A stretch of DNA of 46,652 nt from an uncultured Treponemataceae bacterium (GCA_964571545.1 CAZNCK010000003.1:11455-58106), one strand, 5' to 3'; counted from the stretch's first letter, positions 18,789 through 39,460 are shown. Numbers and translations are program-made. Notes: generated by a model not told the origin, from the letters alone.

Positions 18789-18789
18789 A

Positions 18790-19611
18790 TTACGGTTTCG
18801 GTTTTAATAAAATCGCCGAGATGGCGACCGGTATAACGGGAGCCGCAATCGAATATATCCAGTTTCCTTCACCCAGCATTAAAGACTGATAAAGCATTAG
18901 TGCGGAGGCAGAAACCGCATAAAGAAAGAGATGCTTTAACCAGAAAATTCTACCAGAAGGAATTAACGCCACAATAAAAGAAGCCAACAGCGGCAATGCA
19001 AATTGTCCCAACACTCGTAAATCAGCGCTGCTCTCGCTTATTTTTGCTTTTGCCAGTAGCGCAAATGCAATTGAGACAACCGTATAGCCGATAAAGGAGA
19101 TGCAGGCGGTACTAACAGCTCGCAGAACAGCCTTTGACTTTTCAGATGCGATCAGTTTATGTGGGCTTATCTTATTATGCACCAACATACTAAAAACCAA
19201 TGTCTGCAAGAGTATTTCCGGAAAGCCTATCGCATGAAACCATAGCGGAATTCTTGAGTAGACAATTCCTTCTATAGATGAAGGCGCGGCGGCGGGCGTT
19301 CCAAGGATGCCCACTCCAACAAAAATCATCCAGATATAGACCCAGCCATTTTTTGAGTCTTCCAACAGTTTCTTGAACGGCAATAAAACCAAACCAATAA
19401 GTAGCCCACGAAGTATCTGGATCATTGGCCCAAACACGGTGGAGACGGACCCAAATGGCTTGTAGTACTCTTTTATGATTGGCATCTCGAAAAGAACCTG
19501 GTACTTCAAGATTGACGATGCGAGGAAACCAAAAATAAAATAGGTAACGACATGAAATATCATAACTGTCAGAAGAAAGGAAAAAACCTGCTTTGATCTT
19601 GATTGTTCCAC
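18790..19611 (-). CDS. Polytopic membrane protein of unknown function
   Basis: 273 aa with about 8 hydrophobic helices. Its stop is 2 nt from the CPBP start, which suggests co-transcription. Confidence 0.55.
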   Translation of the reverse strand: MEQSRSKQVFSFLLTVMIFHVVTYFIFGFLASSILKYQVLFEMPIIKEYYKPFGSVSTVFGPMIQILRGLLIGLVLLPFKKLLEDSKNGWVYIWMIFVGVGILGTPAAAPSSIEGIVYSRIPLWFHAIGFPEILLQTLVFSMLVHNKISPHKLIASEKSKAVLRAVSTACISFIGYTVVSIAFALLAKAKISESSADLRVLGQFALPLLASFIVALIPSGRIFWLKHLFLYAVSASALMLYQSLMLGEGNWIYSIAAPVIPVAISAILLKPKP

Positions 19612-19673
19612 TGAATACTCCTCGAAAAATATACAATAATGAATTAGTCGTTTTTTCTTGCGCCAAGCACGTT

Positions 19674-20255
19674 TCAGGCTCTGCTTTCTTTATTCGCATA
19701 GAGCACCTTATAGTGCGTCATATATATACCGCTGGCAAATTCTACAGCATCCAATAGTTTTAATCGCAACGCCTTCTCGGTGGTAATCCATTTTTTTCCT
19801 GATCCAATCAAGACAGGAAAGGTAAAAAGATATATCTCGTCAATCAATTCAAAGAATAACGCCTGTGAGGCCAGGGCAGCGCCTCCAATACCTATGGTAT
19901 TTTTTTCCTTACGCTTTAAATCCGCTATTTCATTCTTATCAAAGGACCGCCTTAGACTCGTTTGCGAGGTATCAACAGAAGTCAGTGAAGCACTGTAGAC
20001 AATTTTCCTCGCCTTTTTCCAGACACCCTCATACTCTTGTATATAATCCGGCAACGCTTCTCTATCCGGTAAATTCTCCCAGACTCTTAGTATTTGGTAC
20101 ATATTTTTTCCTAACAGAAAAACGCTATTCTCTTTTTCCAGCTTGTTTATGAATCTATGCACATCTTCCTGAGGCTCGGCCCAGTCGAAATTACCCGCCG
20201 CATCGGCAATATAACCGTCCAATGAAGTCAAAATTGCATAGTGCAAGGCGCCCAT
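19674..20255 (-). CDS. Dihydrofolate reductase family protein (RibD C-terminal domain-like)
   Basis: MGALHYAILTSLDGYIADAAGNFDW...FLLGKNMY...GGAALASQALFFELIDEIYLFTFPVLIGSGKKW. I chose the ATG at 20255 because a GAGGAGG ribosome-binding site precedes it. The longer ORF start at 20327 lacks one. Confidence 0.75.
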   Translation of the reverse strand: MGALHYAILTSLDGYIADAAGNFDWAEPQEDVHRFINKLEKENSVFLLGKNMYQILRVWENLPDREALPDYIQEYEGVWKKARKIVYSASLTSVDTSQTSLRRSFDKNEIADLKRKEKNTIGIGGAALASQALFFELIDEIYLFTFPVLIGSGKKWITTEKALRLKLLDAVEFASGIYMTHYKVLYANKESRA

Positions 20256-20302
20256 TACGACCTCCTCGATCAAACATGCGATATTAGCCACTATATGGTC
20301 AG

Positions 20303-20881
20303 CTACATAAAATCTTTCATGCTCCATTCAGTATCATGTATAATAATAGAAAACAATCGATTTTCCGCCGGGTATAATCCTGGAACGCCAAGCTTTTGGA
20401 TATAGCCTTCCTTGCCATAGTCAACCGGCACGTTTATCCTGCTGATAAAATCATTAGTACACTTCGCGTTTCTTTCCTCGACCTCAAGGAGAACATCAAC
20501 GCCGGGCCGGGCAAAATAAACAGCTTTATGTTCTGAATAGTTCTTGAGGCTTATAGTATGCAGGAGCCAGCCGATACGTCCCATGAATGATGAAAATTCC
20601 AGCAGATCATCCACGTCCAAAGCGATATGGTGTAATCCGGCTCCTCTTTTTTTGAACGCCGCCAGGTAGGGGCCAGTCTTAAGGGGGGCCTGAAGAAGCA
20701 GTCTGGAACAAGATTCTGAAGGCCCGATATAGGTTTCCTCAGTTCCTTCTGATTCAAACCTCTCGATTTCACCGACTAAACAGCCTACTGTTTTAAATTT
20801 TTCTGATATTTTTTTTATATCAGAAACCAAAATAGAAACATGATTAACGCTCACCCTCATGCGCGCCTCCGAAATAGCCAT
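20303..20881 (-). CDS. VOC (glyoxalase/bleomycin-resistance/dioxygenase) family protein
   Basis: 192 aa. VNHVSILVSDIKK and GLHHIALDVDD are typical VOC beta-alpha-beta-beta-beta module strings. Confidence 0.6.
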   Translation of the reverse strand: MAISEARMRVSVNHVSILVSDIKKISEKFKTVGCLVGEIERFESEGTEETYIGPSESCSRLLLQAPLKTGPYLAAFKKRGAGLHHIALDVDDLLEFSSFMGRIGWLLHTISLKNYSEHKAVYFARPGVDVLLEVEERNAKCTNDFISRINVPVDYGKEGYIQKLGVPGLYPAENRLFSIIIHDTEWSMKDFM

Positions 20882-20974
20882 AGAAACGCCGGCTCTCTTG
20901 CTCCGTCTTCTGCACGCACTGTCATAGATATGTCTCCTTGGCTAAAAATGCATAGTCTCACCAACTCACCGCGC

Positions 20975-21508
20975 TCATTCTACTAAAAAAACATTCCAGC
21001 ATATGTCATTTCTATTTTTCTGATCGTCTAATACCAGTTCCTTTATTTCTACCGGCAATTGGTCATGTTGCCATGCGCATTCTTTCCGGCCATTTTCAGT
21101 TTTATTTCCGCCCTCGCTAGCGGCCAGTACCGCCCTAATCGCGTATGCCGCCGCTCCCAATTCATGCGCCGCTACGTGTGCTACGGCGGCGGCCTGGCCA
21201 GCCGACAGCGCTGCCAGCCTAGCGGCTGACAGCCTTGCGGCTCCAACTACGTCACGAGCGGCGGCATTAGCGTCGAACGCCGCTTTTTTTGCCTCGGTCA
21301 CTGTTATTTCCCCACTGGCCCACGCCCGTGTTGATTCTATGGCTTTACGAGGTCTATTATCGCCTGTACGTTCATTTTCAAAATAATGAAGAACATGTTC
21401 TGAACACCTTGCCGCCCATAGCGCCAACACATGGTGATCCGTATCTGTCAGGGTTCCTCCGCGCCTGATCGTTATAAATCTTGAATCTCTTATTCTTGGT
21501 AAAATCAT
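20975..21508 (-). CDS. Hypothetical protein (resembles putative immunity-protein, Imm5-like, family)
   Basis: 177 aa. HHVLALWAARCSEHVLHYFE...PRKAIESTRAWASGE and an Ala-rich helical repeat match a family I recall being annotated as putative immunity protein. The call rests on memory only. Confidence 0.35.
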   Translation of the reverse strand: MILPRIRDSRFITIRRGGTLTDTDHHVLALWAARCSEHVLHYFENERTGDNRPRKAIESTRAWASGEITVTEAKKAAFDANAAARDVVGAARLSAARLAALSAGQAAAVAHVAAHELGAAAYAIRAVLAASEGGNKTENGRKECAWQHDQLPVEIKELVLDDQKNRNDICWNVFLVE

Positions 21509-21576
21509 AAAGTCCCTTATCTTGACTCAGAGGCAGGGCTCCGTGATTGGACAGTTTGAAGCTCTTTATGCGCGCC

Positions 21577-22068
21577 TCACCCCATGTATTTCTTGCCGAT
21601 ACTTGAGTCGATGCTCATTTTAATGATCGTGACGCCATCATACGAATGGTCATCCTTGATGTTCCTGTCAAAAATCGGTTGCGGGTCCTTTTCCAGATGA
21701 TTCAGGATTATCTGCAGGCCGTGCTTTTTCTCTGCGAGCTCATCAACGATACACATAGCACCGCGTATGACGAGCGATTCGTAATCATGATCGCATCTGG
21801 TTTCAAGATATCCATTATCTTTGATGAGGGTTGCGCAGGCATTGGCATTCTTCCTGATGAAGTCCAGCTTGTCGCCCTTGTTTGCACAATGGAAGTACAG
21901 CACATTACATTCAGCGTCCAGCCCATAGCTCATGGTGACAATATATGGGATATTATTATCGCAGAGTGCTATGGTTACGTGATTGCCTGCCTTAAGCAAC
22001 GCCGTCTTTTCGCCTTCACTGATAATCTCATTTCTTTTTCTTTTGGGGTGGTACTGATCCATTGGCAA
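21577..22068 (-). CDS. Pyridoxamine 5'-phosphate oxidase family (FMN-binding split barrel) protein
   Basis: 163 aa. The pattern is VTIALCDNNIPYIVTMSYGLD...LYFHCANKGDKLDFIRKN...ACATLI...YESLVIRGAMCIV. Confidence 0.65.
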   Translation of the reverse strand: MPMDQYHPKRKRNEIISEGEKTALLKAGNHVTIALCDNNIPYIVTMSYGLDAECNVLYFHCANKGDKLDFIRKNANACATLIKDNGYLETRCDHDYESLVIRGAMCIVDELAEKKHGLQIILNHLEKDPQPIFDRNIKDDHSYDGVTIIKMSIDSSIGKKYMG

Positions 22069-25441: not shown

Positions 25442-25531
25442 ACACGGTATGTATGCCGCATCCTTGAGTAGTAACGCTTGGACAGAGTCTGTGCCACACG
25501 ATATTCCTTAGCTGGAACAGTCGCCAATATC

Positions 25532-25978
25532 TTATTTTTCCATTAGTTCTATTCCGCTATTTCTTACCTCAAATCCATATTTTTTGTATAGTTTTTTAGC
25601 TAGCGTATTATCAGCCCCTACTTCTACATTAAAAGCGCTTATAGTCTTTTCTTTTGCGACCCGCAGAACCTTCTCGATTAACATTGATCCAATTTTATTG
25701 CTCCGATATTTTTTATCGACGAAGAGATCATCTATTGAACAAACAAAGCCATAATTGCCCATTGCATAATAATATTTAACGACCACGTATCCAATAATTA
25801 GATTCTCACTTTTTGCGCAAAATACATTACCTACTAGCTCATTTGATATAAATACAGTGAATGCTTTGGTTGCTTTCTCTATATTAACCGTATAGCCGGA
25901 TTCAGAGTAGAATGCTTTCATCAATTCAAGCAGGCCAGGAATATCCGATAGCGTTGCCTTGCGTACTGACGAGACCAT
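25532..25978 (-). CDS. GNAT family N-acetyltransferase
   Basis: It has the acetyl-CoA motif A (DLFVDKKYRSNKIGSMLIEKV) and a C-terminal KLYKKYGF. I chose the ATG at 25978 because a GGAGAAAGG ribosome-binding site precedes it. Confidence 0.8.
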   Translation of the reverse strand: MVSSVRKATLSDIPGLLELMKAFYSESGYTVNIEKATKAFTVFISNELVGNVFCAKSENLIIGYVVVKYYYAMGNYGFVCSIDDLFVDKKYRSNKIGSMLIEKVLRVAKEKTISAFNVEVGADNTLAKKLYKKYGFEVRNSGIELMEK

Positions 25979-26067
25979 ACGTTCCCTTTCTCCAAAATCG
26001 CATTGTATTGTTCTGAGCAATTAGCATAACTAAAAATCTATTTTACGCGTTTAAACATTAAATTATT

Positions 26068-26583
26068 CTACCTAATCAATTTCTTTATTGGCTTTATTGT
26101 TTTTAACGCCCAGTCATAATGACTGGATGTTGCTGAAACAAGATACGCTCCTAATGATGTCGTTCCAGTCCATACATATTTTTTCTTTGTGAATAGATCG
26201 TCATCGGTATGGCTTTTAATTATATCAGTTATTTCCTTATGGCTTTTATTTAATAAGTGCAATGCCGCATTCAATTCTGTACCCTTATACTTTTCATAGA
26301 TTCTATGATTCAACACTGGTAACGTTGCCCATGTCACATCCTCTGCCGGTATAGCGGGCTTCTTTCCACTCATTCCAATTTCATACCAATTCTTCATCAT
26401 TACATGCCATTCATGTAGATGGCAAATCACATCAGCTATTGTTTTATCTCTATCATTAAGCTCATTATTGCTATAAATAATTTCTTGATATTCTTTGGGC
26501 AATGTTTCAATAAACCCAAATAATTTCTTTAAGTTTTCATCGCCAAGCGACAGCAACTCTGATTTATCAACTGGTCTAGGCAT
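26068..26583 (-). CDS. ClbS/DfsB family four-helix-bundle protein (DUF1706)
   Basis: 171 aa. The layout is RPVDKSELL...CHLHEWHVMMKNWYEIGMSGKKPAIPAEDVTWATLPVLNHRIYEKY...SHYDWALKTI. This matches the family built around the colibactin self-resistance protein ClbS. Confidence 0.65.
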   Translation of the reverse strand: MPRPVDKSELLSLGDENLKKLFGFIETLPKEYQEIIYSNNELNDRDKTIADVICHLHEWHVMMKNWYEIGMSGKKPAIPAEDVTWATLPVLNHRIYEKYKGTELNAALHLLNKSHKEITDIIKSHTDDDLFTKKKYVWTGTTSLGAYLVSATSSHYDWALKTIKPIKKLIR

Positions 26584-26862
26584 CGTTCCTCCTTCTATTC
26601 TGCGCCGACTGTGTTACAAGAATCATACCTACATCATTTTTATTTAACTATAAAATGCTTTCTATTTGATCCGCCAAACACATCAATGCATCTCGACGTT
26701 CCTGTACACTTTTTTATACCTACTTTTTTACAAAACTCAGTATACAATCAGTCTAGCGCAAATTCCATAGGAAATTTCATCCATTTTGATTCGATTTCGA
26801 TCTAGATGTGGACATTTTTGGAGTTATCGATCCGTACATCTGTTTGGTTTATTAGCCCGCAA

Positions 26863-26891
26863 TTGACGCCGGCATGGCATTGCCTTACCAT
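26863..26891 (+). promoter_or_regulatory. Sigma70-like promoter upstream of the DDAH gene
   Basis: TTGACG (26863-26868), a 17-nt spacer, then TACCAT (26886-26891). An AGGAG ribosome-binding site at 26909-26913 precedes the ATG at 26922. Confidence 0.4.
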
Positions 26892-26921
26892 AGGCGCAAT
26901 TCAATGCCCAGGAGCCCATCA

Positions 26922-27793: not shown

Positions 27794-28159
27794 GTGAAGA
27801 TACTCTACCTGGTCATAGTCCTGCTCGTAGCCATACTCGCCGTTATGTTCGCGGCCCAGAACAGCGCGACGGTAGCCATAACGTTCTTTGCGTGGAGCAG
27901 CTCCGGGTCGCTGTCGCTCGTGCTCATCCTAACGCTCACCCTGGGCATACTCATCGGCGTGCTGATAATGGCGCCTTCGGTATTCAAGCGCTCCGTCCAA
28001 TCCTCCGGCCTCAAGCGCCGCCTGCACCGGCTGGAGAAGGAGAAGACGAGCCTCAACGAGAAGATAGCGGCTACCGAGGAGAAGGACGCGGAGACATCAA
28101 AGCAGGCGGATCCTCCCACAGGAAATAGCGCCAAGTCGCCCGATTCCAGACCGAACTGA
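27794..28159 (+). CDS. LapA-family (DUF1049) small inner-membrane protein
   Basis: 121 aa with two TM helices (ILYLVIVLLVAILAVMFAAQN; SLSLVLILTLTLGILIGVLI). A charged coiled tail follows. Confidence 0.65.
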   Translation: MKILYLVIVLLVAILAVMFAAQNSATVAITFFAWSSSGSLSLVLILTLTLGILIGVLIMAPSVFKRSVQSSGLKRRLHRLEKEKTSLNEKIAATEEKDAETSKQADPPTGNSAKSPDSRPN

Positions 28160-28222
28160 GCTTCAACCGCGGGTGTTCGGCTTTGGCTCCTCGGACTGTT
28201 CTCTTGGCAATCTTGCTTCGGC

Positions 28223-29830
28223 TCATTTCAACAAGGGCAACCCAAGCTCTTTCAGGTACTTATTGTGCTTCTTGGTTGCGTCTTTTATTTTCTCTTCGAT
28301 AATCGCCAGATCTTGATTGACTCTATTCAGGTCAATCCCCTCTTCAGCCACGGCGGTGCTGATGTAACGAGAAATATTCAGGTTGTAGGCATTGCCCTTA
28401 ATTTCGTCCATGGAGACACGGCGGGAGTAGCGCTCCTCAACCTTGCGGAACTGGTAAGTATCGACGATCTTGGCGATGTGTTCTTCGGTCAGGCGGTTCT
28501 GGCGCTTGCCTTTCTCGAAATATTCGGCGGCGTTGATGAAGAGCACATCGTCGTACTTCTTGCATTTCTTCAAGACCAGTATGCACACAGGGATGCCGGT
28601 AGAGAAGAAGAGATTGGCGGGCAGGCCTATCACCGTGTCGATGTTGCCATCCTCAAGGAGTTTGGTTCTGATGCGCTCTTCGGCTCCGCCACGGAAGAGG
28701 ACGCCATGAGGCAGGATGATGGCCATGGTGCCTTCCTTGGCCAGGAAGTGAAAGCCGTGAAGCAGGAAGGCAAAATCGGCGGCGGACTTGGGGGCAAGAC
28801 CATAGTTCTTGAAACGGAAATCCTCTGCCAGGGCATAGTTGGGTTCCCATCGGTAGCTGAAGGGAGGATTGGCCACCACGGCGTCGAAGCGTGGCTCCCT
28901 GGCGGGGTTGAGCTCCCGCAGGTAGTCCCATTCGTTCAACAGGGAATCGCCATGGAAAATCTCGAACTGTGAATCCTTGACGCCGTGGAGCAGCATATTC
29001 ATCCGGGACAAGTTGTAGGTGGTAATATTCTTTTCCTGGCCGTAGATCTTGCCTATGCTGTGGGCGCCCAGGGACTTTCTGACATTCAAGAGCAAGGATC
29101 CTGAACCGCAGGCAAAGTCCAGGACTTTTTCAAGGTGCTTCTTCTTGCCCGTAGCCGGTTCCTGACTGTCCAGGGTGACTATGCCCGAGAGTATGCTGGA
29201 GATTTGTTGTGGTGTGTAGAACTCGCCTGCCTTCTTGCCTGAGCCAGCTGCGAATTGGCCAATCAGGTACTCGTAGGCGTCGCCCAAGATATCGCTCCGG
29301 GTTGAAAACCTGGCGATGCCCTCGGCTATCTTCTGGATGATGGTGCAGAGCTTGGCATTGCGGTCGGTGTAGTTCTTGCCAAGCTTCTCAGAACTCAGAT
29401 TGATTTCAGAGAACAGGCCCTGGAAGGTACTCTCGAAGGAGTCGTTCTCTATATGCTTGAACCCGGCCTCCAGACGGTGGAGGAGTTCGGCATCCTGGGT
29501 CCGCGCCATCTCCGCTATGTTTGACCACAGGAATTCAGGCTTTATCACATAGTGTACCTTGCGGCGCATCTGGTCTTCAAATTGCGCGGTATCGGCCTTA
29601 TTGGCCTTGTACCACGCCGAAAGCGGCGAATAGCCGTCGGTCTCGCTCTGGCGCGGATAATCGTTTCCTAACTCTTTTTTAGCGGCCAGTTCGTAATTGT
29701 CAGACAGGTAGCGCAGGAAGAGGAAGGACAGCATGTAGTCGCGGAAGTCGTCGGCGTTCATGGCCCCGCGCAGTTGGTCGGCTATGCCCCACAGGGTGTT
29801 GCCCAGTTCTTTCTGGTCGACGTCAGTCAT
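28223..29830 (-). CDS. hsdM: Type I restriction-modification system, DNA methyltransferase subunit M
   Basis: HsdM N-terminal domain (LWGIADQLRG...DYMLSFLFLRYLSD), an AdoMet motif (VLDFACGSGSLLL) and the N6-adenine catalytic motif NPPF (VVANPPFSYRW). I prefer the ATG at 29830 because a GGAG ribosome-binding site precedes it and it overlaps the MNT stop by 8 nt. The ORF is open to 29857. Confidence 0.92.
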   Translation of the reverse strand: MTDVDQKELGNTLWGIADQLRGAMNADDFRDYMLSFLFLRYLSDNYELAAKKELGNDYPRQSETDGYSPLSAWYKANKADTAQFEDQMRRKVHYVIKPEFLWSNIAEMARTQDAELLHRLEAGFKHIENDSFESTFQGLFSEINLSSEKLGKNYTDRNAKLCTIIQKIAEGIARFSTRSDILGDAYEYLIGQFAAGSGKKAGEFYTPQQISSILSGIVTLDSQEPATGKKKHLEKVLDFACGSGSLLLNVRKSLGAHSIGKIYGQEKNITTYNLSRMNMLLHGVKDSQFEIFHGDSLLNEWDYLRELNPAREPRFDAVVANPPFSYRWEPNYALAEDFRFKNYGLAPKSAADFAFLLHGFHFLAKEGTMAIILPHGVLFRGGAEERIRTKLLEDGNIDTVIGLPANLFFSTGIPVCILVLKKCKKYDDVLFINAAEYFEKGKRQNRLTEEHIAKIVDTYQFRKVEERYSRRVSMDEIKGNAYNLNISRYISTAVAEEGIDLNRVNQDLAIIEEKIKDATKKHNKYLKELGLPLLK

Positions 29831-30209
29831 GGTAAGCTCCGGCAGCGTCTGGATCATGCTCGGCTACCCACCCCTCGGCACTGTGCACAAACAAGGGTTT
29901 GGCAACCTGGTCGATGTGCTGCCGCAAGGGCAAATATACAATAGCGGAATATCTTTTAACATCCACTGAAAACGGCAAGGGGCTTTCCTGGAACAGCGTC
30001 CACAGGCGGTCAGCTGATTTTTCATCGAGCGGGCCATAGAGTACCAGATCAAGGTCTGAATTGGGCCGATAATTACCCTGTGCCCGGGAACCAAAAACGG
30101 CTACCCTTTCAAGCTCCGGGCCTGCCGTTTCAAGAATACCGCGGATTATGTCCAGCTCTTCTGTACGCAAGCCAAAGAGGGGCTGCATGGAATAGTTCAA
30201 GGCAAACAC
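29823..30209 (-). CDS. Nucleotidyltransferase-domain antitoxin (MNT, HI0073-like; type VII TA)
   Basis: 128 aa with the Pol-beta NTase motif VAVFGSRAQGNYRPNSDLDLVLYG. It overlaps the upstream HEPN gene by 13 nt. Confidence 0.8.
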   Translation of the reverse strand: MFALNYSMQPLFGLRTEELDIIRGILETAGPELERVAVFGSRAQGNYRPNSDLDLVLYGPLDEKSADRLWTLFQESPLPFSVDVKRYSAIVYLPLRQHIDQVAKPLFVHSAEGWVAEHDPDAAGAYHD

Positions 30210-30610
30210 CGCTCAAGCAGGAATTCATACCATGCATCAAAGGCCGACACATACCTTGCGCGTAGATCAGCGATGACCTGTTCAAAATCTTCAAAATTGT
30301 AGGTATGCGACATGCGGTTGCGGGCATCCAGTGCCTCTTGCCAGACGGCGCCTTGCTTGATGATGCCCGCCTCGAAGGCCCGACGAATAACCGTGCGGGG
30401 AGTCAGCTGGTCAAGCACGACATTCTCGCTTTCAAGATAATCCTTCATGGATTTCCAGGCCAGTTCCATGGTGCATTCAAAACGCTGGATAACGCCTTCC
30501 TTCTCCAGCTGAGTCAAGGGCTTTTCCTGGTCAAGCGCTTCACGCAGCAAGCTAAAAGCCCGGCGATAATTATCAAAGCGATACCTCCAACGGGGAGTCT
30601 GATCTGTCAT
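30197..30610 (-). CDS. HI0074-family nucleotidyltransferase substrate-binding (HEPN, HepT-like) toxin
   Basis: 137 aa. The HEPN Rx4HxY motif is present as ARNRMSHTY, and the length and helical character fit the family. Confidence 0.8.
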   Translation of the reverse strand: MTDQTPRWRYRFDNYRRAFSLLREALDQEKPLTQLEKEGVIQRFECTMELAWKSMKDYLESENVVLDQLTPRTVIRRAFEAGIIKQGAVWQEALDARNRMSHTYNFEDFEQVIADLRARYVSAFDAWYEFLLERCLP

Positions 30611-30635
30611 TGCGGATTCTCCTTTACATAATGCT

Positions 30636-31868
30636 TCATCGCTTCGCCTCTTCAGTCTGCGGAAAGAGCTGCTGCATGAGGCCCTTCTTGTGTAATTTGA
30701 GGGCTTCTATCTTCTGGGCTTGGGCGGAAATAAGGTTGTCAAGGAAAGACAGAAAGTCGGAGATCTTTTGTTGTTCTTGCGCTTCTACAGGTATCAAGAG
30801 TGGACAGTTTAATACATCTTCCTTACGCAAGTTTGTTTGCTTTACGCCATCATCAAAAGACAAATAGAAACTATTACGATCAAGAATAAAGAATAACAAT
30901 TTAGGAACAACTCCATTCGGCGTCAGTTTGCAGATTCGTTGGTTGACTGTGTACCGGTCGTCAGAATCCACTAGGAAACACTTAGCAATTGCTCTGCCAT
31001 TTGGGACATCACTCATGACCATTAGTAAATCATTGATATTCGTAGGACAAAAACATTTATCAGAATATTTCCTGATTTCGCCATCAGTAGAGATGAATTT
31101 TGAATTCACAAGAATATATGGGCCGAGATCGACGACATTATTTTCGTGTGCTTTGCCATTTTCAAAACCAACCACTTTTTCAAGAGTAGTTTCTTCCCAC
31201 TCCCCCTTATCCCTGAACTCCTTAAACCGCAGCCGTGGTACGCTCTCGCCTTCTGCGGGGAAGAGTTGCTGCATGAGGCCCTTCTTGTGGGTTTTGAGGG
31301 CGAAGAGCTTCTGGTTGTGGGCAGCGATCAGGTCGTCCAGGGAGGAGAGGCAATCGGCGATTTTTTGTTGCTCATTTTTCTTTGGAATGGCAAAAGAAAT
31401 CGAGAAGAAATCATCGGGTTTAATATTCAGTAATCCATCACTTCTTGCCCCACTTGTGATGAATTTCTTTAATTGACTACCGTGAGCATTGAACTCAAAG
31501 TATTGCTTGAGAAAATCAGCAATATAACCTAACTTGAGACGAAAACAAATGAAAGCATTAGGAGATGCTACTCGCTTGAACTCGACAAGCTTATAAATAC
31601 TACCTTGTGGATATCGTTTTGAATTGCCTTTGTTGTATGCAAATTCGCCTTCACTGAGTACAATATAGTTTTTATATTGCTCTCCTGAAATGTCACGTCC
31701 GAACTTTTCAAACTGAGATACAAATCCAAATCCAGCGGAAATACTTACAGAAGGGAGAACTTCAGTTCCGACCTTATCAATTATTCTGTCACTAATCATC
31801 CCTAGAGGAATTACTTCCCACTCCCCCGCGTCCTTGAACTCCGGAAATCTCAGTTTCGGCACGCTCAT
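30636..31868 (-). CDS. hsdS: Type I restriction-modification system, specificity subunit S
   Basis: 410 aa. Two target-recognition regions are separated by conserved helices: LKTHKKGLMQQLFPAEGESVPRLRFKEFRDKGEWEE centrally and LKLHKKGLMQQLFPQ at the C-terminus. The N-terminus is MSVPKLRFPEFKDAGEWE. Confidence 0.92.
   Translation of the reverse strand: MSVPKLRFPEFKDAGEWEVIPLGMISDRIIDKVGTEVLPSVSISAGFGFVSQFEKFGRDISGEQYKNYIVLSEGEFAYNKGNSKRYPQGSIYKLVEFKRVASPNAFICFRLKLGYIADFLKQYFEFNAHGSQLKKFITSGARSDGLLNIKPDDFFSISFAIPKKNEQQKIADCLSSLDDLIAAHNQKLFALKTHKKGLMQQLFPAEGESVPRLRFKEFRDKGEWEETTLEKVVGFENGKAHENNVVDLGPYILVNSKFISTDGEIRKYSDKCFCPTNINDLLMVMSDVPNGRAIAKCFLVDSDDRYTVNQRICKLTPNGVVPKLLFFILDRNSFYLSFDDGVKQTNLRKEDVLNCPLLIPVEAQEQQKISDFLSFLDNLISAQAQKIEALKLHKKGLMQQLFPQTEEAKR
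30657..30692. repeat. hsdS conserved-region direct repeat, copy 1
   Basis: ctgcggaaagagctgctgcatgaggcccttcttgtg. Its 23-nt core tgctgcatgaggcccttcttgtg is identical to 31275-31297. Confidence 0.9.
31261..31297. repeat. hsdS conserved-region direct repeat, copy 2
   Basis: ctgcggggaagagttgctgcatgaggcccttcttgtg. It pairs with 30657-30692 and encodes the KKGLMQQLFP helices. Confidence 0.9.
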
Positions 31869-32584
31869 AGATTTTCCGCATAAAACATCGATTTTTCAGG
31901 TTTATTCCAATCAGTTCTTAACCTAAACCAATAGACGGGAATTGAACCAGCTATTTTTTGAACGACCTTGCGTGACAAGGGGTCTGATCTGTCTCCTATA
32001 TAAATATTTCGTATTTGACCTTGGATTGTATATTTTTCCAAATTTGTTAATAGGCGATATTCTTCTTCATGTGCCCAGTGCTTTGATTTATTTGTGACGA
32101 TATCCAATAAGCTTGCCATTTGAGGATCAGAATTTATCATATTGAACTCATCATCAAAACTTGCTGCCTTATGGATATAAAATCCTTTGTAAGACACCTT
32201 GTTAAGTTTATCCATCTCCCGTACTTGTTCAGACGCTATCAAAGAATTGTCAAATTCAATTTCAACACAAATACCTTTAAACGCATCGGCATAATAGGCC
32301 CATAATAAATAATTTTCCTTGCAAGAGCTCAAAGAACAGATTTTTATTGTATCAAGATGAGGAAAGTCATAAACCGATCTAACCTCGGTATTACTACTAT
32401 CAACACTCATGCCGTTTCTGTATTTCGTTGTAACACCGCTGTAGACAAATTTACCTTCCCATAGATCGTTAAGGTCGTGCAAAGTAGAACAATGAATTTT
32501 TTGCTCACAGATCAATTCGGCAATATGTTGGATATTTGATAACGACTTGTATTTATAGAGCAACATAATGTTCTCTCCATTCAT
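31865..32584 (-). CDS. DUF2971 domain-containing protein
   Basis: 239 aa. The N-terminal LLYKYKSLSN...LHDLNDLWEG follows the DUF2971 pattern (YKY...NDP-E). Its stop overlaps the hsdS ATG (ATGA at 31865-31868). The gene is AT-rich relative to hsdS, hsdM and hsdR. Confidence 0.65.
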   Translation of the reverse strand: MNGENIMLLYKYKSLSNIQHIAELICEQKIHCSTLHDLNDLWEGKFVYSGVTTKYRNGMSVDSSNTEVRSVYDFPHLDTIKICSLSSCKENYLLWAYYADAFKGICVEIEFDNSLIASEQVREMDKLNKVSYKGFYIHKAASFDDEFNMINSDPQMASLLDIVTNKSKHWAHEEEYRLLTNLEKYTIQGQIRNIYIGDRSDPLSRKVVQKIAGSIPVYWFRLRTDWNKPEKSMFYAENL

Positions 32585-32666
32585 CGCTCTCCGCTACTAT
32601 ATGATTGATTTTGCAACCTTTGTTTTCTAGATTTCTGTGATTCAAATTTGTCCACGAGCTTATTAA

Positions 32667-32696
32667 CTCCGGGAATCGCAACTTCGGCATGCTCAT
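32667..32696 (-). pseudogene. Orphan hsdS 5' stub (first ~10 codons only)
   Basis: The minus strand reads ATGAGCATGCCGAAGTTGCGATTCCCGGAG (MSMPKLRFPE). The true hsdS start at 31868 reads ATGAGCGTGCCGAAACTGAGATTTCCGGAG (MSVPKLRFPE), giving 25/30 nt identity. It has the same ATGA overlap with the preceding stop, and similarity ends after about 30 nt. Confidence 0.7.
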
Positions 32697-33193
32697 GGTT
32701 GTTCATCGTCTCCAGCCAGGCTATCAGGTTTGCCCAATGCCTTTTTGTCTTCGGAACCAATCCGACGTTCCACTTTCTTGATATCCTCAGACGGGGAGAG
32801 GCTTTCGGGCCTTATTCCACGACTAAGCAGAGTGTCGCGCACCGCCCTGTTGTTGGTGAAGTGTTCCAACGAGATTTCTGACTCCTTATTCATGCTGTGC
32901 TCACGGGCATTGTGGATTGTAATCCGGGGGAGCATGATGTCTGGGACTTCCCTCTTACTTCCCGATCCAAGCTCGACCATTTTCCCGACGTCGGCAAAAT
33001 GGTCCCTTACCTCATGGGAGGAAATTTCGCATGCAGTCTTAGCTTTGATGACTACATTGAGGAAGTTGTCCCATTTGGCATAGCCTAGCAGGAATTGCAG
33101 ATCGCGGGCCAACCAGTACTCGATACCATCCTCGGTTGTTTGGGCATGACCTTCAAATGTTGCGGTAAGGGCAGTGATGACTTCATTTTCCAT
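32693..33193 (-). CDS. DNA-damage-inducible protein D (DinD)-like protein, apparently lacking the central third
   Basis: The N-terminus (WLARDLQFLLGYAKWDNFLNVVIKAKTACEISSHEVRDHFADVGKMVELGSGSKREVPDIML) parallels E. coli DinD. The C-terminus (HFTNNRAVRDTLLSRGIRPESLSPSEDIKKVERR) parallels the DinD tail. It is about 166 aa against about 270 aa expected. An AAGGAG ribosome-binding site precedes the ATG at 33193. Confidence 0.6.
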   Translation of the reverse strand: MENEVITALTATFEGHAQTTEDGIEYWLARDLQFLLGYAKWDNFLNVVIKAKTACEISSHEVRDHFADVGKMVELGSGSKREVPDIMLPRITIHNAREHSMNKESEISLEHFTNNRAVRDTLLSRGIRPESLSPSEDIKKVERRIGSEDKKALGKPDSLAGDDEQP

Positions 33194-33226
33194 AGCAGGT
33201 CTCCTTTGCGCCATGCATTGAACCAC

Positions 33227-33551
33227 TGGCGTGGGCCACGAGGAAATAGTCGCCTACCTGCACGAAGGTGCTGACGGCGGTCAAACTTGACGAAACCCGA
33301 TGAGGGGTATACGGTAACGGCAAGTCCTGGGTCAGTGAAAGTAGGCCACGAGCCTCGTGCGGTGCATTGCATCGCCTAGCTGCCGATAGGACTTTTTTAT
33401 TTTTCCCCATCGAAGCGCTCCTTGGTGATGGGGTTTGTTTAGTTAAAATATGTTTCATCAAACACGGTGAAGTCAAACCTGCTTTTATGAGATCCTTTTT
33501 CTTTTTTCCAAGAAAATCAGGATCGCCGGATTCGTCGACAAAGTAGTGCAT
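33227..33551 (-). pseudogene. DUF3800-family gene remnant
   Basis: The ATG at 33551 opens MHYFVDESGDPDFLGKKKKDLIK, the characteristic DUF3800 N-terminus (DESG motif). After about 25 codons no frame keeps a plausible protein. Only about 325 nt are available before the next gene. Confidence 0.4.
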
Positions 33552-33577
33552 ACGGGGGACTTCCTGGTGTGCATCAA

Positions 33578-34279
33578 TCATTTCCCGCCACCCAAGTTTT
33601 GTAGTTCTTCCACCAACTGGTAAACCGTGGTACAGGGGTTGGATTGATCTGGAGAAATACCCTGGGATTGGAAGCTGGAATATAGGCGTTTGGCGTTTCT
33701 CATTGCATCGCCAAGCTTTGCTCTGGTCAAGTCGAACATGCTGGAGGCGCGCTTATCATACCTGAAGCCAAGCTCCGTGGACAATTGCGTTATGATCAAG
33801 TCCCGATCCGTGCCGCTGTTCTGATAGCGAAAGTGCAGGAGATACCACAGCTCAAAACAAGGATTAGACCAGGCAACCTTTACGGGAGGCTTACTGCTGG
33901 CCGATTGCTGCAGCGCGGTGTTGAAATCTTCCAGGGTGTGTCCGCCGCCGTTCGTGCGTTCCGCGTCACGGTCGATGACAATCCATCGCTGGTCAAAGTC
34001 TTTGAACGTGATCCCGTCATCCTGATACGACTGAAGATCGGCCAATACGCCTGTCGGGTTGGTATGGGTGTGGGGAGCGATTATGCAAGACCGTGCGGAT
34101 ACCTGTCGTGAATCGCGCAGGCAGACAAACCACGATTCAAAATAAAAGCGCTCTGTCTTCTCCCCCTCGCAGGCGATGATAAACAACAAGCGCTGATCAA
34201 GCCGGTTTTCCTGTCGTTGAGTATGGCTTTGAAATCGTTTGCGGACTTGACGATTGGACTCGTTCTGGCGTCGAGCCAT
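33578..34279 (-). CDS. RloB-like protein (AbiLii-like, TOPRIM-like)
   Basis: 233 aa. RloB landmarks are FIIACEGEKTERFYF, WIVIDRDAE and VAWSNPCFELWYLLHF. Its ATG overlaps the ATPase stop (TGATG at 34277-34281). Confidence 0.8.
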   Translation of the reverse strand: MARRQNESNRQVRKRFQSHTQRQENRLDQRLLFIIACEGEKTERFYFESWFVCLRDSRQVSARSCIIAPHTHTNPTGVLADLQSYQDDGITFKDFDQRWIVIDRDAERTNGGGHTLEDFNTALQQSASSKPPVKVAWSNPCFELWYLLHFRYQNSGTDRDLIITQLSTELGFRYDKRASSMFDLTRAKLGDAMRNAKRLYSSFQSQGISPDQSNPCTTVYQLVEELQNLGGGK

Positions 34280-35544
34280 CAGTCAGCCCTTAGGGCAAAC
34301 GCGCCTAAGTAGGGAATGGCTCCGAACTTGCCCTGGATATAGTGCTTTTCGATATTGTCTGTGGGGCGGACGTTTTTATATTCCGCCAGGGAATGCACAT
34401 GGGATGCGCCTTGCGCGTCTTTTTCGGCAAACCATATCTGGGATTTATGGAACAGGCTCTGATCGAGCAGGTTGGTGTCGTGGGTGGCAAAGATCAACTG
34501 GGCGTGCCCGGGATTGCTCTCAGGGTCATTGAAGAGCTTGACCAGGGCCCTGGTCAGCATGGGGTGCAGGCTGGCGTCGAGTTCGTCTATTATAAGGATT
34601 CGGCCATGCAGCAGGGTATCGATAATAGGCGCGGAAAGACAGAAATACTTTTTGGTGCCTTCCGATTCGTCGCGGGCAAAATCAAACTCGGTAGTGCCGA
34701 TGGCCTTCCTGTCAGCGTCAAAGCGTTGGTGACTGGCTCGCAGGCCGAGCTTCCTGAGGGGAGACTCCGCCTGCCGCAATTGCTCGCGCAGTTCCGCCGG
34801 CAAGGGCATGGTGTCGATTTCTGTACGGCCCAGATCCTGTTCTTCTACCGACAGATCGCGGATGCCCAGATCGGCCGCCTGGATGAGCTTCATGATCTGG
34901 TCCCTAAAACGGTGCTGCTTCAGTTGCTGGATTGAATAGCCCAGGTAGGCCGATGCCTGCATGCCGTTTATGACATTGAGGTTCTGGAACCAGCCCAGGA
35001 TCGTGCGGGAAACGGGACCGCCTTCCTGGTCGCAACGCCACAAGAAGAGGCTGTTGGGTAGCGCCTTGACCCCCTTGCCTTCCCTGAACCGTTCCGGGTT
35101 CCAGTACAGTTCAGCCTCTTCTGTGTCGCGAAAGAAAAGCCTGGCTTCTTTGCCTTTCTCGTCGGCGAACAGCCATTCGGCATACACGGTCGTTGCATCG
35201 ACCTCGAACCCATAGCGGTACTTTATTCCTTCAACGATGAACACCATCTCGAATGAACTGGATGCGTCCATGGTATCGGTAGCCAGTCGATGGGGATCAT
35301 GCGGAATCGTGTCGGTGGACTGTATGATCTTGGGCTGGTTGAGCACCATCGACTTCATGTAGTCAAAAGCCCGTAAGATATTGCTTTTTCCGCTGGCATT
35401 GGCACCATACACAACCGCGGAGGTCAGGAGGGTCAGCCCCTTTGCCGCAAAACAGTTGCCCGTAGCACCCGAACCGGAGACCATGCTGAATTCAACGCGG
35501 TCCTTGATTGACCTGTAATTATCAAAGCTGAATTGAACAAGCAT
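34279..35544 (-). CDS. AAA_21/ABC-like ATPase (AbiLi/RloA-like)
   Basis: 421 aa. N-terminal FDNYRSIKD, Walker A GANASGKSN, ESEGTKK, Walker B ILIIDELDASLHP, and ATHD with FAEKD near the C-terminus. Confidence 0.8.
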   Translation of the reverse strand: MLVQFSFDNYRSIKDRVEFSMVSGSGATGNCFAAKGLTLLTSAVVYGANASGKSNILRAFDYMKSMVLNQPKIIQSTDTIPHDPHRLATDTMDASSSFEMVFIVEGIKYRYGFEVDATTVYAEWLFADEKGKEARLFFRDTEEAELYWNPERFREGKGVKALPNSLFLWRCDQEGGPVSRTILGWFQNLNVINGMQASAYLGYSIQQLKQHRFRDQIMKLIQAADLGIRDLSVEEQDLGRTEIDTMPLPAELREQLRQAESPLRKLGLRASHQRFDADRKAIGTTEFDFARDESEGTKKYFCLSAPIIDTLLHGRILIIDELDASLHPMLTRALVKLFNDPESNPGHAQLIFATHDTNLLDQSLFHKSQIWFAEKDAQGASHVHSLAEYKNVRPTDNIEKHYIQGKFGAIPYLGAFALRAD

Positions 35545-35620
35545 CCATATCCCCCGGTTTCAAGGGTAATATAGCACATATTTGTATAAATGTAGCAATA
35601 TTCGGTTTTATTTCCTCGAT

Positions 35621-38592
35621 ATCATGACTCATACGCCGTCAATCCCGATATTTCCCGTCCCTGGGCCAGGGTGTGCAGTATTGGCACGAGACGTTCCATT
35701 AAAGCCAGTTCCTTCTGGGTTCGGGCCTTCCAGCCCAGGTCCAGGGGGCCAGGAGGCGGGTCAGATCCTCACCATCAAAGACCATGCGTTCCAGGATGCC
35801 GTCTAAAAAATCTTGCAGGGCCTCGGGGTCGAGTCCTTGTTCCGCGGCCAGCTTGGTGAGTTCCATTCGATGCTTGGCGTTCTTGAAGGCATCGTAGCCT
35901 TGGCGGATGCTGGTTTCGCTCAAACCTTTTTTTGTGTCCAGGGTATCGATATAGGCGATTATATCTTCGCGCTCGTCCAGGAATTTGGCGTCGGACAGGA
36001 GATGAGGCTCACCAGTTGGTCTCGGGTCATCTTCTGCTTTTCAGGCGGGGCGTTGGTATACCCGGCGATGAGCCCCATGATGTAGTCATAGTCTATGAGA
36101 GCCGAGGCGAACAGTACGAACTCGAAGTCCAGCTGAGGCGTATCCATGGGTTGGTCGCCGAATCCTGGTTCATTGAATTTGAGCCGCTGGGCGGTTTCCA
36201 GGTATACGCCCCTGTAGGCCCAATGGTCTTCCGCGGGCAGTACCGCTTCTATCTGGATCCTGTCCTCGGGCGTAAGGTCGGTGTACTGATCCAGTTGGGT
36301 CTTGAGGCGCTGGACTTCCTTGAACAGTGTAATGAACTGGCCTCGGGCCGTATCGCCTTTGAGCTGGGGCACATCTTCCGGCCGGGACTGGAGCCCCTGG
36401 GAACTCATGAAGCTGCCCAGGTTGGTCATAGCCTCCTGTAGCTTGCCTATCACCGCCGGAGCGGGATCGACCAGCCAGATTTCCTTGGCGGATTGGGTGT
36501 CTTGCCCCGAGAATAACGCTATGGCGGTATCGACCGCTTCGTTTTGCCCCCTGAAGTCAAGGATGTTTCCATAGGGCTTGGTATCGTTGAGGACACGGTT
36601 GGTGCGGGAAAAGGCCTGGATCAGGCCGTGGAATTTCAGGTTCTTGTCTACGTACAGGGTGTTGAGGTACTTGGAATCGAAGCCGGTCAGGAGCATGTCA
36701 ACCACAATGACGACGTCTATTTTCTTGCCGTGGGACAGGTCCTGGTTGCTGTACTGTTGGTCCTTGATACGCTTCTGCACGTCCTGGTAATACAGGTCAA
36801 ATTCTCCGATGCCGTGGTTTGTTCCGTACTGGGTATTGTAGTCGGCGATGATGGCCTTGAGGGCGGCCTTCTTCTCTTCGGGGGCCTGCTGGTTGTCCTG
36901 CTTTTCCTGGGGCAGGTCTTCCTGAATCTGCTGGACATCCTTGTCACCCTCGGCGGGGGGAGAAAAGACGCAGGCGATGTTCAGTGGCCAGAACCCGGAG
37001 TCCGTTGCCCGCCGCTTGTCCTGCACTTCCTTGAACAGGCGGTAGTATTCGATTGCGTGGTTAATGGACTGGCAAGCCAGCACCGCGTTGAACTTGCGGT
37101 CATTGGTGGCGCCGTTGTGTTTGGCGACAATCGCCTCGACCACGGCTTTTTGCGTGAAGAACTCTCCTGGCTTGGGTTGGGCGGAACCTTCGGCTTTATA
37201 GTAGTCGATATGGAAACGCAGGACGTTGCGGTCCTCTATGGCGTGAGTAATGGTATAGGCGTGGAGTTGCTTCTGAAAAATGTCGTCTGTGGTTATGAGG
37301 GTCTTTTCTTCTCCGGTGATCTGCTTGTAGCTGGCGTTGTCGACAAAAATAGGTGTGCCGGTAAAGCCGAACAGCTGGGCATTGGGGAAGAATTCCTTGA
37401 TGGCCTTATGGTTATCGCCAAATTGGGAACGATGGCACTCATCGAAGATGAAGGCAATGCGCTTATCGCGTAAGGGTCCGAGGCGCTCCTTGTAGCCCCG
37501 CGTGCTGGTATCATCCAGGGCCAGTCCCAGCTTTTGAATAGTCGTGACTATGACCTTGTTGGCATAGTCGTCGGACAAAAGCCGTTTTACCAGGGTCTCG
37601 GTATTGGTGTTTTCCTCGACGCACCCCGCCTGAAACTTGTTAAACTCCTCGCGGGTCTGCCGGTCCAGATCCTTGCGGTCCACCACGAAGAGGCACTTGT
37701 CTATGTCGGGGTTATCCTTGAGCAGGGTGGATGTCTTGAACGACGTAAGGGTCTTGCCGCTACCGGTAGTGTGCCAGATATACCCGTTGCCCCGGTTCTG
37801 GTGGATGCACTCGACGATGGCTTGTACCGCGTACATCTGATACGGCCGCATCATGAGGAGTTTTTGTTCGCTGGCTACCAGTACCGTGTAGCGGCTGATC
37901 ATTTCCCCGAGCGTACACTTCGCGAGGAAGGCGCTCGCAAACGCGTCCAGCTGTGTAATTTTATTGTTGTTCGTATTAGCAAATTGGTAGAGCGGCAGAA
38001 AGCGTTCATCGGCGTCAAAGCTAAAATGCCTGGCATTATTATTGGCAAAATACCAGGTGTCGGTGCGGTTGGAGACGATGAACAGCTGGATAAAACACAA
38101 GAGAGTCTTGGTGTACCCGTTTCCTGGATCGTTCTTGTATTCCACGATCTGCTTCAGGGCCGTCCGAGGCGTGATCTTGAGACCCTTCAGTTCAATTTGA
38201 ACAACGGGCACGCCGTTTAAGAGCAGCATGACATCATAGCGATGGCTACTGTTATCTGTGTTGATTCTGAGTTGGTTGATTACTTCAAAGTTGTTCTTGC
38301 ACCAGTCCTTGATGTTGACCAGGGTGTAATGGAGGGCGGTACCATCTTCCCGCTCAAAGGTCTGCCGTTCCCGCAAGAGCCTCGCCGAGGAATATACGTC
38401 AGGGCTGATGATGTCATCCAGGAGCCGGGTCTTCTCATTCGGGGTAAGCCTGACCCTGTTGAGTTCCTCGAAGTTTTGAAAAAAGTTTGTCTCTAGGCCG
38501 GCGCGATCACGAATGTCAGACCGGTAGCTGTACTTGAGTTCCCTGAGCTTTTCGATGAGGTCATGCTCGATCTGACTTTCCAGTGGTGTCAT
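35621..38592 (-). pseudogene. hsdR: Type I restriction endonuclease subunit R, C-terminal region broken by two 1-nt frameshifts
   Basis: The 877-aa ORF (35959-38592) has a nuclease core (YDVMLLLNGVPVVQIELK), Walker A WHTTGSGKT and DEAH-type FDECHRSQ. Its C-terminus continues in a second frame (HLLSDAKFLDEREDIIAYIDTLD...GEDLTRLLAP, ORF 35699-35923). A third frame then reads PLDLGWKARTQKELALMERLVPILHTLAQGREISGLTAYES* to the stop at 35621-35623. Confidence 0.8.
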
Positions 38593-38632
38593 TGCGGCCC
38601 TGCCATTTTTTATGCTTCGTGAGGTAGTCGCG

Positions 38633-38662
38633 AGTATACATGGAAATACTTTGTAGCGTCAA
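38633..38662 (-). promoter_or_regulatory. Sigma70-like promoter upstream of hsdR
   Basis: The minus strand reads TTGACG (38662-38657), an 18-nt spacer, then TATACT (38638-38633). It sits about 40 nt before the hsdR ATG. Confidence 0.35.
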
Positions 38663-38734
38663 ATAATGTTAGCGAGCGTATTCCACATAACCATACCTGT
38701 CCAAGGTCAGGACGCGGTCAGGTTCCGCGCAACC

Positions 38735-39460
38735 CTATCCTATCCTGATGGACGCCGCCAGGCTGCCTTCACGCAGCGTGCCTGCTTTTGTAGCGGAGCG
38801 GACGAACAGCCGGTAGTCGCCTGGCTCCAGCTCGGGTGGTAGCTGGAATATGACGAGGCGCGGTTTGACGCTGGCATATATGGAAGCGCGGAGCGGCGGC
38901 ATGCCGGGTCGGGCTCCTGGCCGCGGATACGGCTCGAAGAAAATGCCAACGCTTCCGTCGGCCTGCTGGAAGCCAAGCCTGTAGCCCGAGAGTCTGGCAA
39001 ACGCCCCTGGTTTGAACCCGGCTTCCTCATCGACTGAAACCAGAACCGCCGGACAGGGCAGCAGCTGGAAGCTCTGGTCGTCGCGTTTTACCGACACAGG
39101 CGACATGATGCGCGCCTCGGCGTCACGGGCCGGCCTGAACCGCAACCGCAGTCCATGCCCGCTGGCTGTACGGTGCGGCTCGACGTGGTCCTGCCTGCTG
39201 TCCGCGGAACCCGTTGCCGTTACGCAATAGTCACCCAGTGGCGTCTTGACGAATTTGCCATCAGCCACGAGCCGCTCGACGGTCCCGGTCATAAGCATTA
39301 ATGCCGCGCTGAGGTCCGGCCCGGACAGCCTGATATGAGATTCCGCCATGATGCGCAGCAATTCGTCGAACTCGATTATCTCATCGTGGCTGGTGTGAAA
39401 GCGCCAGGCCTTCTTTGTACCCGCGAGCGTGTTCTTGCGTATGCCTACGGTCAGGGCCAT
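38735..39460 (-). CDS. HU-like DNA-binding domain protein with a C-terminal DUF4469 (Ig-like) domain
   Basis: From the ATG at 39460: MALTVGIRKNTLAGTKK...FDELLRIMAESHIRLSGPDLSAALMLMTGTVERLVADGKFVKTPLGDY (HU-like). The C-terminal half has a PGDYRLFV-type beta-rich tail, as in DUF4469 proteins. The longer ORF to 39556 is less plausible. Confidence 0.55.
   Translation of the reverse strand: MALTVGIRKNTLAGTKKAWRFHTSHDEIIEFDELLRIMAESHIRLSGPDLSAALMLMTGTVERLVADGKFVKTPLGDYCVTATGSADSRQDHVEPHRTASGHGLRLRFRPARDAEARIMSPVSVKRDDQSFQLLPCPAVLVSVDEEAGFKPGAFARLSGYRLGFQQADGSVGIFFEPYPRPGARPGMPPLRASIYASVKPRLVIFQLPPELEPGDYRLFVRSATKAGTLREGSLAASIRIG

Follow-up and report, generated by a model that had tools for sequence, protein, structure and literature searches.

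Gene content and organization of the hsd locus

The DNA analysed here is a stretch of 46,652 nucleotides (nt) from an uncultured Treponemataceae bacterium (GCA_964571545.1 CAZNCK010000003.1:11455-58106); the whole stretch is hereafter called the window, and positions are counted from its first letter. Positions 28223 to 38592 are occupied by a chromosomal type I restriction-modification locus of the EcoR124/EcoprrI-like type, from a groundwater metagenome-assembled genome (MAG; GCA_001829165.1). Calling of open reading frames (ORFs), with assignment by Pfam and PADLOC, yielded ten ORFs, all on the minus strand, which fill the region in the order hsdR, AbiLi/AbiLii (RloB), a 132-codon ORF, a shortened DinD-like gene, a DUF2971 gene, hsdS, hepT, mnt, and hsdM. 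These features, together with a remnant of a second hsdS start and a promoter-like site, are as follows (lengths in amino acids, aa):

Promoter-like site, 38633-38662, minus strand: TTGACG-18-TATACT, 40 nt upstream of hsdR; found by consensus scan only
hsdR, 35959-38592 as an open frame (ancestral extent 35622-38592), minus strand: HSDR_N, SWI2_SNF2, T1R_D3, and EcoR124_C domains; PADLOC REase_I, 1018 bits
abiLi, 34279-35544, minus strand: rloA-like AAA_21 ABC ATPase, 421 aa; AAA_21 over its full length, 3.9e-43; PADLOC AbiLi, 3.3e-98
abiLii, 33578-34279, minus strand: RloB, a TOPRIM/OLD-like partner, 233 aa; Pfam RloB over 1-195 of 195, 7.6e-41; PADLOC AbiLii, 2.5e-30
132-codon ORF, 33183-33581 (degenerate stretch at 33193-33581), minus strand: without a family match
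DinD-like/Bro-N gene, 32693-33226 (also delimited as 32693-33192), minus strand: PADLOC PDC-S13 in two stretches, 5.2e-49; weak Bro-N match
Ghost hsdS start (MSMPKLRFPEL), 32665-32696, minus strand: 11 codons; 27 of 32 nt shared with the true start of hsdS
DUF2971 gene, 31865-32566, minus strand: 233 aa from the ATG at 32566 (alternative start at 32584); Pfam PF11185, 30.4 bits; PADLOC PDC-S31, 1.6e-41
hsdS, 30636-31868, minus strand: 410 aa; Pfam Methylase_S in two stretches; PADLOC Specificity_I over 3-403, 3.7e-95
hepT, 30197-30610, minus strand: HEPN RNase toxin, 137 aa; NTase_sub_bind (PF08780), 1.9e-41
mnt, 29823-30209, minus strand: minimal nucleotidyltransferase antitoxin, 121-128 aa; NTP_transf_2, 1e-08; Polbeta, 6.8e-08
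hsdM, 28223-29830, minus strand: 535 aa from the ATG at 29830 (longer ORF to 29857); N6_Mtase, 2.6e-103; HsdM_N

An earlier note on this DNA had listed ten co-oriented genes of the same families, and it agrees with the Pfam and PADLOC matches except for a DUF3800 assignment discussed below. The PADLOC run that it had called for returned REase_I, AbiLi, AbiLii, PDC-S13, PDC-S31, and Specificity_I. Non-hsd genes thus lie on the same strand between the core hsd genes, with short or overlapping junctions. All four junction strings quoted in the note were present on the minus strand: TGATG (34277-34281), where the start of abiLii overlaps the stop of abiLi; ATGA (31865-31868), where the stop of the DUF2971 gene overlaps the start of hsdS; ATGACTGA (29823-29830), where the start of hsdM (ATG at 29830) overlaps the stop of mnt by 8 nt; and a second ATGA (32693-32696). 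The last of them joins the DinD-like gene to the ghost hsdS start and not to the DUF2971 gene.

The promoter-like site upstream of hsdR is a possible operon promoter. No tRNA gene was found anywhere in the window and no integrase turned up among its ORFs scanned against Pfam, so there was no sign of a discrete integrative element. In MIAQ01000178.1, under which NCBI lists the source contig, runs of N lie inside AbiLi (34755-34787) and hsdM (29168-29487), where the window has real sequence; these runs probably explain why the two genes are missing or truncated in public gene calls.

Decay of the restriction subunit gene

All the HsdR domains listed above are present, yet they are not contained in one intact ORF. 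The frame as written stops at 35959, giving 877 aa of about 989, and related HsdR proteins measure 984-1000 aa, with a few longer. When four full-length relatives were compared with the window by tblastn, the match ran past this stop, continuing in a second frame to about 35720 and in a third one to 35628. Up to codon 864 the gene is intact, and a +2 insertion (TC, 35999-36000) follows; the second lesion is a -1 deletion in the C-run at 35744-35748, which has five C where six are needed. Once the TC was removed and one C was added, a 989-aa ORF was obtained, which aligned without gaps to the 989-aa HsdR of a related locus (L001; 75.6% identity). The ancestral stop is located at 35622-35624, and the apparent gap of 414 nt before AbiLi is the 3' end of hsdR. 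The gene does not end at 35959 and, with its two frameshifts, is a pseudogene.

Support for the frameshifts came from contigs of the Logan collection, not from raw reads, with a word depth of 2.5-5.6x. Contigs from the source sample covered the whole frameshift stretch and were identical to the window. Identity to the window was also found across the first site in a contig of another sample from that study, and across the second site in a contig of a third sample, which belongs to a different study. In a fourth sample, a contig carried the in-frame C6 allele and differed at other positions too. Since Logan contigs match the window over both sites, the indels look genuine. From the truncation, which removes the last ~125 residues, we infer that restriction has been lost or crippled, in line with what work on the C-terminal domain of the EcoR124I HsdR reportedly indicates. 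Because hsdR is frameshifted twice, the locus is decaying, rather than being the compact working defence island that had been proposed.

Probable remnants of an earlier arrangement between hsdR and hsdS

The DinD-like gene, described in the earlier note as shortened, was confirmed by alignment to have lost about 118 internal codons without a change of frame. Against the 280-aa DinD of a related locus (L016), the alignment (70% identity) takes in residues 1-94 and 210-278 only, so that residues ~95-209 are missing. No full-length DinD of ~280 aa is present, and the gene is likely non-functional.

The 132-codon ORF upstream of it had been considered a DUF3800 remnant. Only an 11-residue stretch, MHYFVDESGDP, may recall the N-terminus of that family; no DUF3800 match was obtained against Pfam at E <= 10, the only hit being a chance-level bHLH_HIF1A (E = 0.11), and tblastn against plasmids gave a chance match only. 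The homology search returned only two partial relatives, both of them upstream parts of other degraded DinD loci. Residues 40-109 matched only the upstream part of one such locus (P0152), where the stretch encoding KKVLSAARRCNAPHEARGLLSLTQDL (33300-33400, residues ~62-87 of the ORF) is conserved and is joined to a DinD whose own internal deletion differs from that of the window. No RNA family was detected by Rfam at E <= 1 over 28000-39000, and RNA folding of 33200-33480 was not significant (z = -1.1). This stretch probably represents non-coding debris, or else a leader preceding DinD. Of the five or more unrelated cargo modules first counted at the locus, four are therefore verifiable, one of them (DinD) as a deletion derivative, and the DUF3800 module could not be verified.

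The ATG within the second ATGA (32693-32696) does not share the frame of the DUF2971 gene, whose start lies 108-126 nt beyond the DinD stop; instead, it opens a 47-codon ORF beginning with MSMPKLRFPEL. This ghost start resembles the real hsdS start (31837-31868, MSVPKLRFPEF) at the nucleotide identity listed above, and the two are the only PKLRFPE-type motifs in a six-frame translation of the window; the codons of the ghost start are GC-richer than those of the real one. Among relatives with DinD in the interval between hsdR and hsdS, DinD is followed directly by hsdS, and two of them (L039 and L068) have the same ATGA overlap. Because of the identity to the hsdS start, the uniqueness of the motif pair, and the DinD-hsdS overlap in relatives, the ghost start reads as a scar that recombination left of an earlier R-DinD-S layout.

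Methyltransferase, specificity subunit, and embedded pairs

HsdM, an N6-adenine methyltransferase by its domains, is full length and 86% identical to the HsdM of L001; relatives' HsdM proteins align from residue ~9-10 of the longer window ORF. HsdS is intact, with two target-recognition domains and the N-terminal, central, and C-terminal conserved repeats, and the M2S complex would still methylate. In a Pseudanabaena MAG (L042:5929-11550), the hsdM match lay in three pieces over 5.6 kb, which suggests insertions inside hsdM itself. The PADLOC Specificity_I models PDLC03083 and PDLC03138 matched the N-terminus of the DinD-like protein (1.1e-22) and MNT (1.4e-5), which implies that the PADLOC training data contain fusions or read-throughs of DinD with HsdS and of MNT with HsdS.

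AbiLi exhibits both a Walker A motif (GANASGKS) and a Walker B motif (ILIIDELD), and its gene adjoins that of an RloB-family partner through the TGATG overlap. The pair shares this layout of two overlapping genes, an ABC ATPase and an RloB-family protein, with AbiL of Lactococcus, RloAB of Campylobacter, and PARIS, and is matched by the PADLOC models of both AbiL components; like rloAB, it adjoins hsdR. AbiL, RloAB, and PARIS have been described as one common architecture, consisting of an ATPase and a TOPRIM/OLD-like protein (PMC13064643). The window pair may act as an ATPase-nuclease abortive-infection system of the PARIS/RloAB type.

HepT carries RNRMSHTY (Rx4HxY) at residues 97-104, and MNT carries the GSx10DxD motif, GSRAQGNYRPNSDLD, at residues 40-54; toxin and nucleotidyltransferase motifs are thus found in abutting genes. 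The two motifs and the adjoining small genes correspond to the HepT/MNT type VII toxin-antitoxin systems, but the window pair is embedded between hsdS and hsdM and its toxin gene comes first, whereas the Shewanella model system reportedly has the reverse order, with the antitoxin first. The pair is predicted to act as an RNase toxin-antitoxin back-up, taking the slot and the role of PrrC, an ABC ATPase-HEPN protein encoded between hsd genes in most relatives (see below). At the level of chemistry, this would be a like-for-like replacement, because a HEPN domain forms the nuclease of PrrC, and many clades of HEPN proteins are embedded in restriction-modification operons, with more than 16 linked to restriction-modification (PMC3710099).

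The DUF2971 gene

The DUF2971 protein belongs to the family according to both Pfam (30.4 bits, above the gathering score of 22) and the PDC-S31 model. The best start is the one at 32566: GGAGAG lies upstream of it, and the resulting N-terminus agrees with the MxLYKF of the family. A word-indexed homology search returned only the protein itself; an exhaustive HMMER search of a library of 1.8 billion representative proteins yielded 2277 related clusters, with a best identity of 34%. In an alignment of 70 family sequences, the protein kept 13 of the 13 invariant residues (N33, D34, E37, G38, W89, Y92, G98, K160, W164, E167, E169, R171, and G191), including E167-x-E169.

Members of this family are predicted to be ADP-ribosyltransferase (ART)-like (PMC12522546), and one of them, Aristaios, is an ART-like, experimentally validated anti-phage system (PMC11381338). 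The window gene resembles Aristaios and PDC-S31 in its family matches, its single-gene form, and its ExE-type motif. For an AlphaFold2 model with a predicted local distance difference test score of 85.5, the top Foldseek hits were DarT1, DarT, pierisin, cholera toxin, mosquitocidal toxin, and Tpt1, among which DarT is a DNA-targeting ART. None of these hits is significant, but they agree with the predictions published for the family. Aristaios is longer (316 versus 233 aa), and the two are likened by family membership. The protein may act as an ART-like toxic effector of this type. It is intact and diverges strongly from the rest of its family, in which one anti-phage example has been validated, and is thus a reasonable, though not unique, target for an ART test.

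Three contexts of related short DUF2971 proteins were informative: a type I restriction-modification locus with an integrase, a position directly upstream of an MmeI-type restriction-modification enzyme, and a position beside a Tle1-like gene. Short DUF2971 proteins of the same subfamily were also observed on 16 viral or proviral contigs of IMG/VR (L172-L187), several of them a few kb from the contig end.

Comparison with related loci

Scans with HsdR found related loci at 69-80% identity, 80 of them in genomes and 80 in metagenomes. These loci span many phyla and include at least one archaeon, so the hsd module is widely transferred. No relative closer than 80% HsdR identity was found in the genome or metagenome scan, and cassette turnover was accordingly judged at larger distances only. 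HsdR and HsdM were encoded on one contig in 117 loci, with hsdS between them in 110. The R-S-M order, which the earlier note had read as part of a landing pad, is the norm for this hsdR family and is not peculiar to the window, the standard layout being R-S-[cargo]-M.

Among the 110 complete loci, the R-S interval had a median of 41 nt and was empty in 74 and occupied (more than 300 nt) in 34. The S-M interval was occupied in 107 and contained PrrC (PADLOC, 6.1e-134) in 80; PrrC is absent from the window. Further cargo identified with Pfam and PADLOC comprised RhuM (PDC-S05), YhcG/DUF1016 (PDC-S02), DinD (PDC-S13), a zeta toxin, Schlafen/AlbA_2, DUF559, PIN, a Ppl-like 880-aa ATPase, and Dsr2. 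Both intervals carry differing cargo from one locus to another. The inserts are thus not invariant and are defence-associated elsewhere, and the landing-pad reading withstands the cross-relative comparison that had been suggested as its check. The cargo space of the window (~3.75 kb in the R-S and 0.8 kb in the S-M interval) ranks in the top tenth of these loci but is not the largest. No relatives of AbiLi, AbiLii, DUF2971, HepT, or MNT were detected at E <= 1e-4 in the 160 related loci. As individual observations, a full Dsr2 (1313 aa, PADLOC 1473 bits) occupies the S-M slot of L074 (14377-18318), and four loci (L028, L029, L124, and L147) have the Ppl-like ATPase together with a Schlafen/AlbA_2 protein in the R-S slot.

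Older examples of such embedding are the rlo/mlo ORFs of the Campylobacter jejuni hsd loci and EcoprrI-PrrC. With EcoprrI, the window shares the HsdR/HsdM family type (EcoR124_C), and most of its relatives carry a PrrC homologue between two hsd genes; the window itself differs in having HepT/MNT in the slot instead of PrrC and in its order, R-S-x-M against M-S-prrC-R. The nesting of defence genes in type I restriction-modification, BREX, and DISARM loci has been termed 'guilt-by-embedding', and the PDC models, including PDC-S31 (DUF2971) and PDC-S13 (DinD-like), were derived from this signal (Payne et al. 2024, bioRxiv 10.1101/2024.01.29.577857). The window locus resembles these cases in its co-oriented non-hsd genes among hsdR, hsdS, and hsdM, in its variable cargo, and in its mixture of known systems (AbiL, PrrC, and toxin-antitoxin pairs in the family) with PDC candidates. 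It differs in that the survey left out systems with pseudogenes, whereas hsdR is frameshifted here, and in that the window keeps debris (the deleted DinD and the ghost hsdS start) recording cargo exchange. The landing-pad reading is the published guilt-by-embedding phenomenon, and every module of the locus belongs to a named family. The DUF2971 and DinD-like genes, put forward earlier as new candidate functions, are already represented by these two models, and a DUF2971 protein has been validated in Aristaios.

Probable history of the mosaic and alternative explanations

Base composition differs markedly along the locus. The GC content at third codon positions is 72% in hsdR and hsdM, 61-68% in AbiLi/AbiLii, 55-58% in HepT/MNT, and 34% in the DUF2971 gene; overall GC is 35% in the DUF2971 gene and 42% in hsdS. 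We read the region as a chromosomal type I locus of the EcoR124/EcoprrI-like type that accreted defence cassettes in both inter-subunit slots and is now partly decayed, and give this reading, including its history and functions, a probability of about 0.8. The ancestor would have had the arrangement R-DinD-S-x-M. On the simplest reading, a low-GC block in which DUF2971 was already coupled to hsdS by ATGA would then have taken the place of the resident hsdS from codon 11 on, AbiL would have entered between hsdR and DinD (with its leader), and DinD and hsdR would have been degraded later. The cassettes may have been exchanged by recombination in the conserved hsd flanks and in the conserved hsdS 5' motif, and would be co-transcribed with the hsd genes.

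Several points weigh against this account. The order given for the insertion events is tentative, and no donor locus with a DUF2971-hsdS adjacency was found, although no search of a genome collection was aimed at such an adjacency. Every activity is inferred from homology, and the loss of restriction leans on the reported EcoR124I work mentioned above. There is a small chance of assembly error at the frameshifts, given the shallow depth and the use of contigs only. Regarding co-transcription, the scan for promoters and terminators found 14 sites in the region against 9.8 ± 2.9 in shuffled sequence, which is not above chance. The ART fold of the DUF2971 protein is weakly supported (best Foldseek E value 0.21, TM score ~0.4), and neither phmmer nor a profile search of the protein against PDB sequences gave a match.

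The mosaic itself, above all the hsdR frameshifts and the DUF2971-hsdS block of low GC, might be an artefact of MAG assembly. The metagenomic source, the N gaps inside AbiLi and hsdM in the NCBI record, the low depth, and the sharp drop in GC from ~54% to 35% would all fit a chimeric join or indel errors, but an independent ENA assembly was 100% identical to the window over 29408-34759, across all junctions. This identity rules out a chimeric join, and assembly chimera was rejected on that ground. The Logan contigs, from three samples and two studies, matched exactly over the parts they covered and jointly spanned both frameshift sites, and the ATGA translational coupling and the GC-richer codons of the ghost start are as expected of a true recombination scar; an artefact is thus very improbable. 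Similarly, we judged it highly unlikely that the indels reflect reversible phase variation instead of decay. One of them does lie in a C homopolymer, for which another sample has the in-frame C6 allele, and the other is a TC dinucleotide duplication. With C5/C6 and two TC units, the tracts nevertheless fall far short of typical phase-variable repeats, both independent frameshifts would have to revert, and the C6 contig, differing elsewhere too, comes from a diverged relative and is no switching variant.

A different view of the cassettes is that AbiL and HepT/MNT are guardians wired to the type I enzyme, restrained by or monitoring Hsd and firing upon its inhibition by a phage. PrrC and PARIS have been described as guardians of restriction-modification (PMC12707154), PrrC occupies the same S-M slot in 80 of the 110 relatives, HepT has the HEPN RNase chemistry of PrrC (PMC3710099), and AbiL has the PARIS architecture (PMC13064643). 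This model is weakened because hsdR is dead and HepT already has a dedicated antitoxin in MNT: the cassettes are intact, and so apparently maintained without a working restriction subunit. Both AbiL and HepT/MNT are, in addition, reported in the literature to work as stand-alone systems in other contexts, and we consider the guardian model doubtful. We are similarly hesitant about a more specific form of the accretion-and-decay history, in which the hsdS 5' motif (encoding PKLRFPEF) would be the recombination anchor, with cargo travelling together with the new specificity subunit and the ghost start as its scar, and in which the RNase and ATPase-nuclease cassettes (HepT/MNT in the PrrC slot, and AbiL) would keep the locus under selection after the death of hsdR. 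If this tentative proposal were true, the type I locus would persist as a methylase-plus-abortive-infection platform and not as a restriction system.

Under the accretion-and-decay reading, the locus illustrates the published principle of defence genes nesting in type I restriction-modification loci and is no new kind of system. What is specific to it is the combination of modules, the degree of decay, and the legibility of the recombination scar. Its modest added value lies in the debris: the ghost hsdS start, the deleted DinD, and the twice-frameshifted hsdR record a gain of cargo followed by decay.

Other features of the window

Outside the hsd locus, a 1018-aa ORF without a Pfam match is located at 623-3679, directly downstream of a 951-aa family-2 glycosyltransferase and near GGDEF/response-regulator and SpoIIE-like genes. 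A low-GC patch just outside the hsd locus (25500-26900, 37%) encodes a GNAT acetyltransferase and a DUF1706 protein. Another low-GC block, at 17000-21600 (37-44% versus ~58% around it), contains small minus-strand genes, encoding an Imm-5-like immunity protein (20975-21508), an Rce1-like CAAX protease (17973-18788), and RibD_C and glyoxalase-family proteins; this block may be a separately acquired islet.

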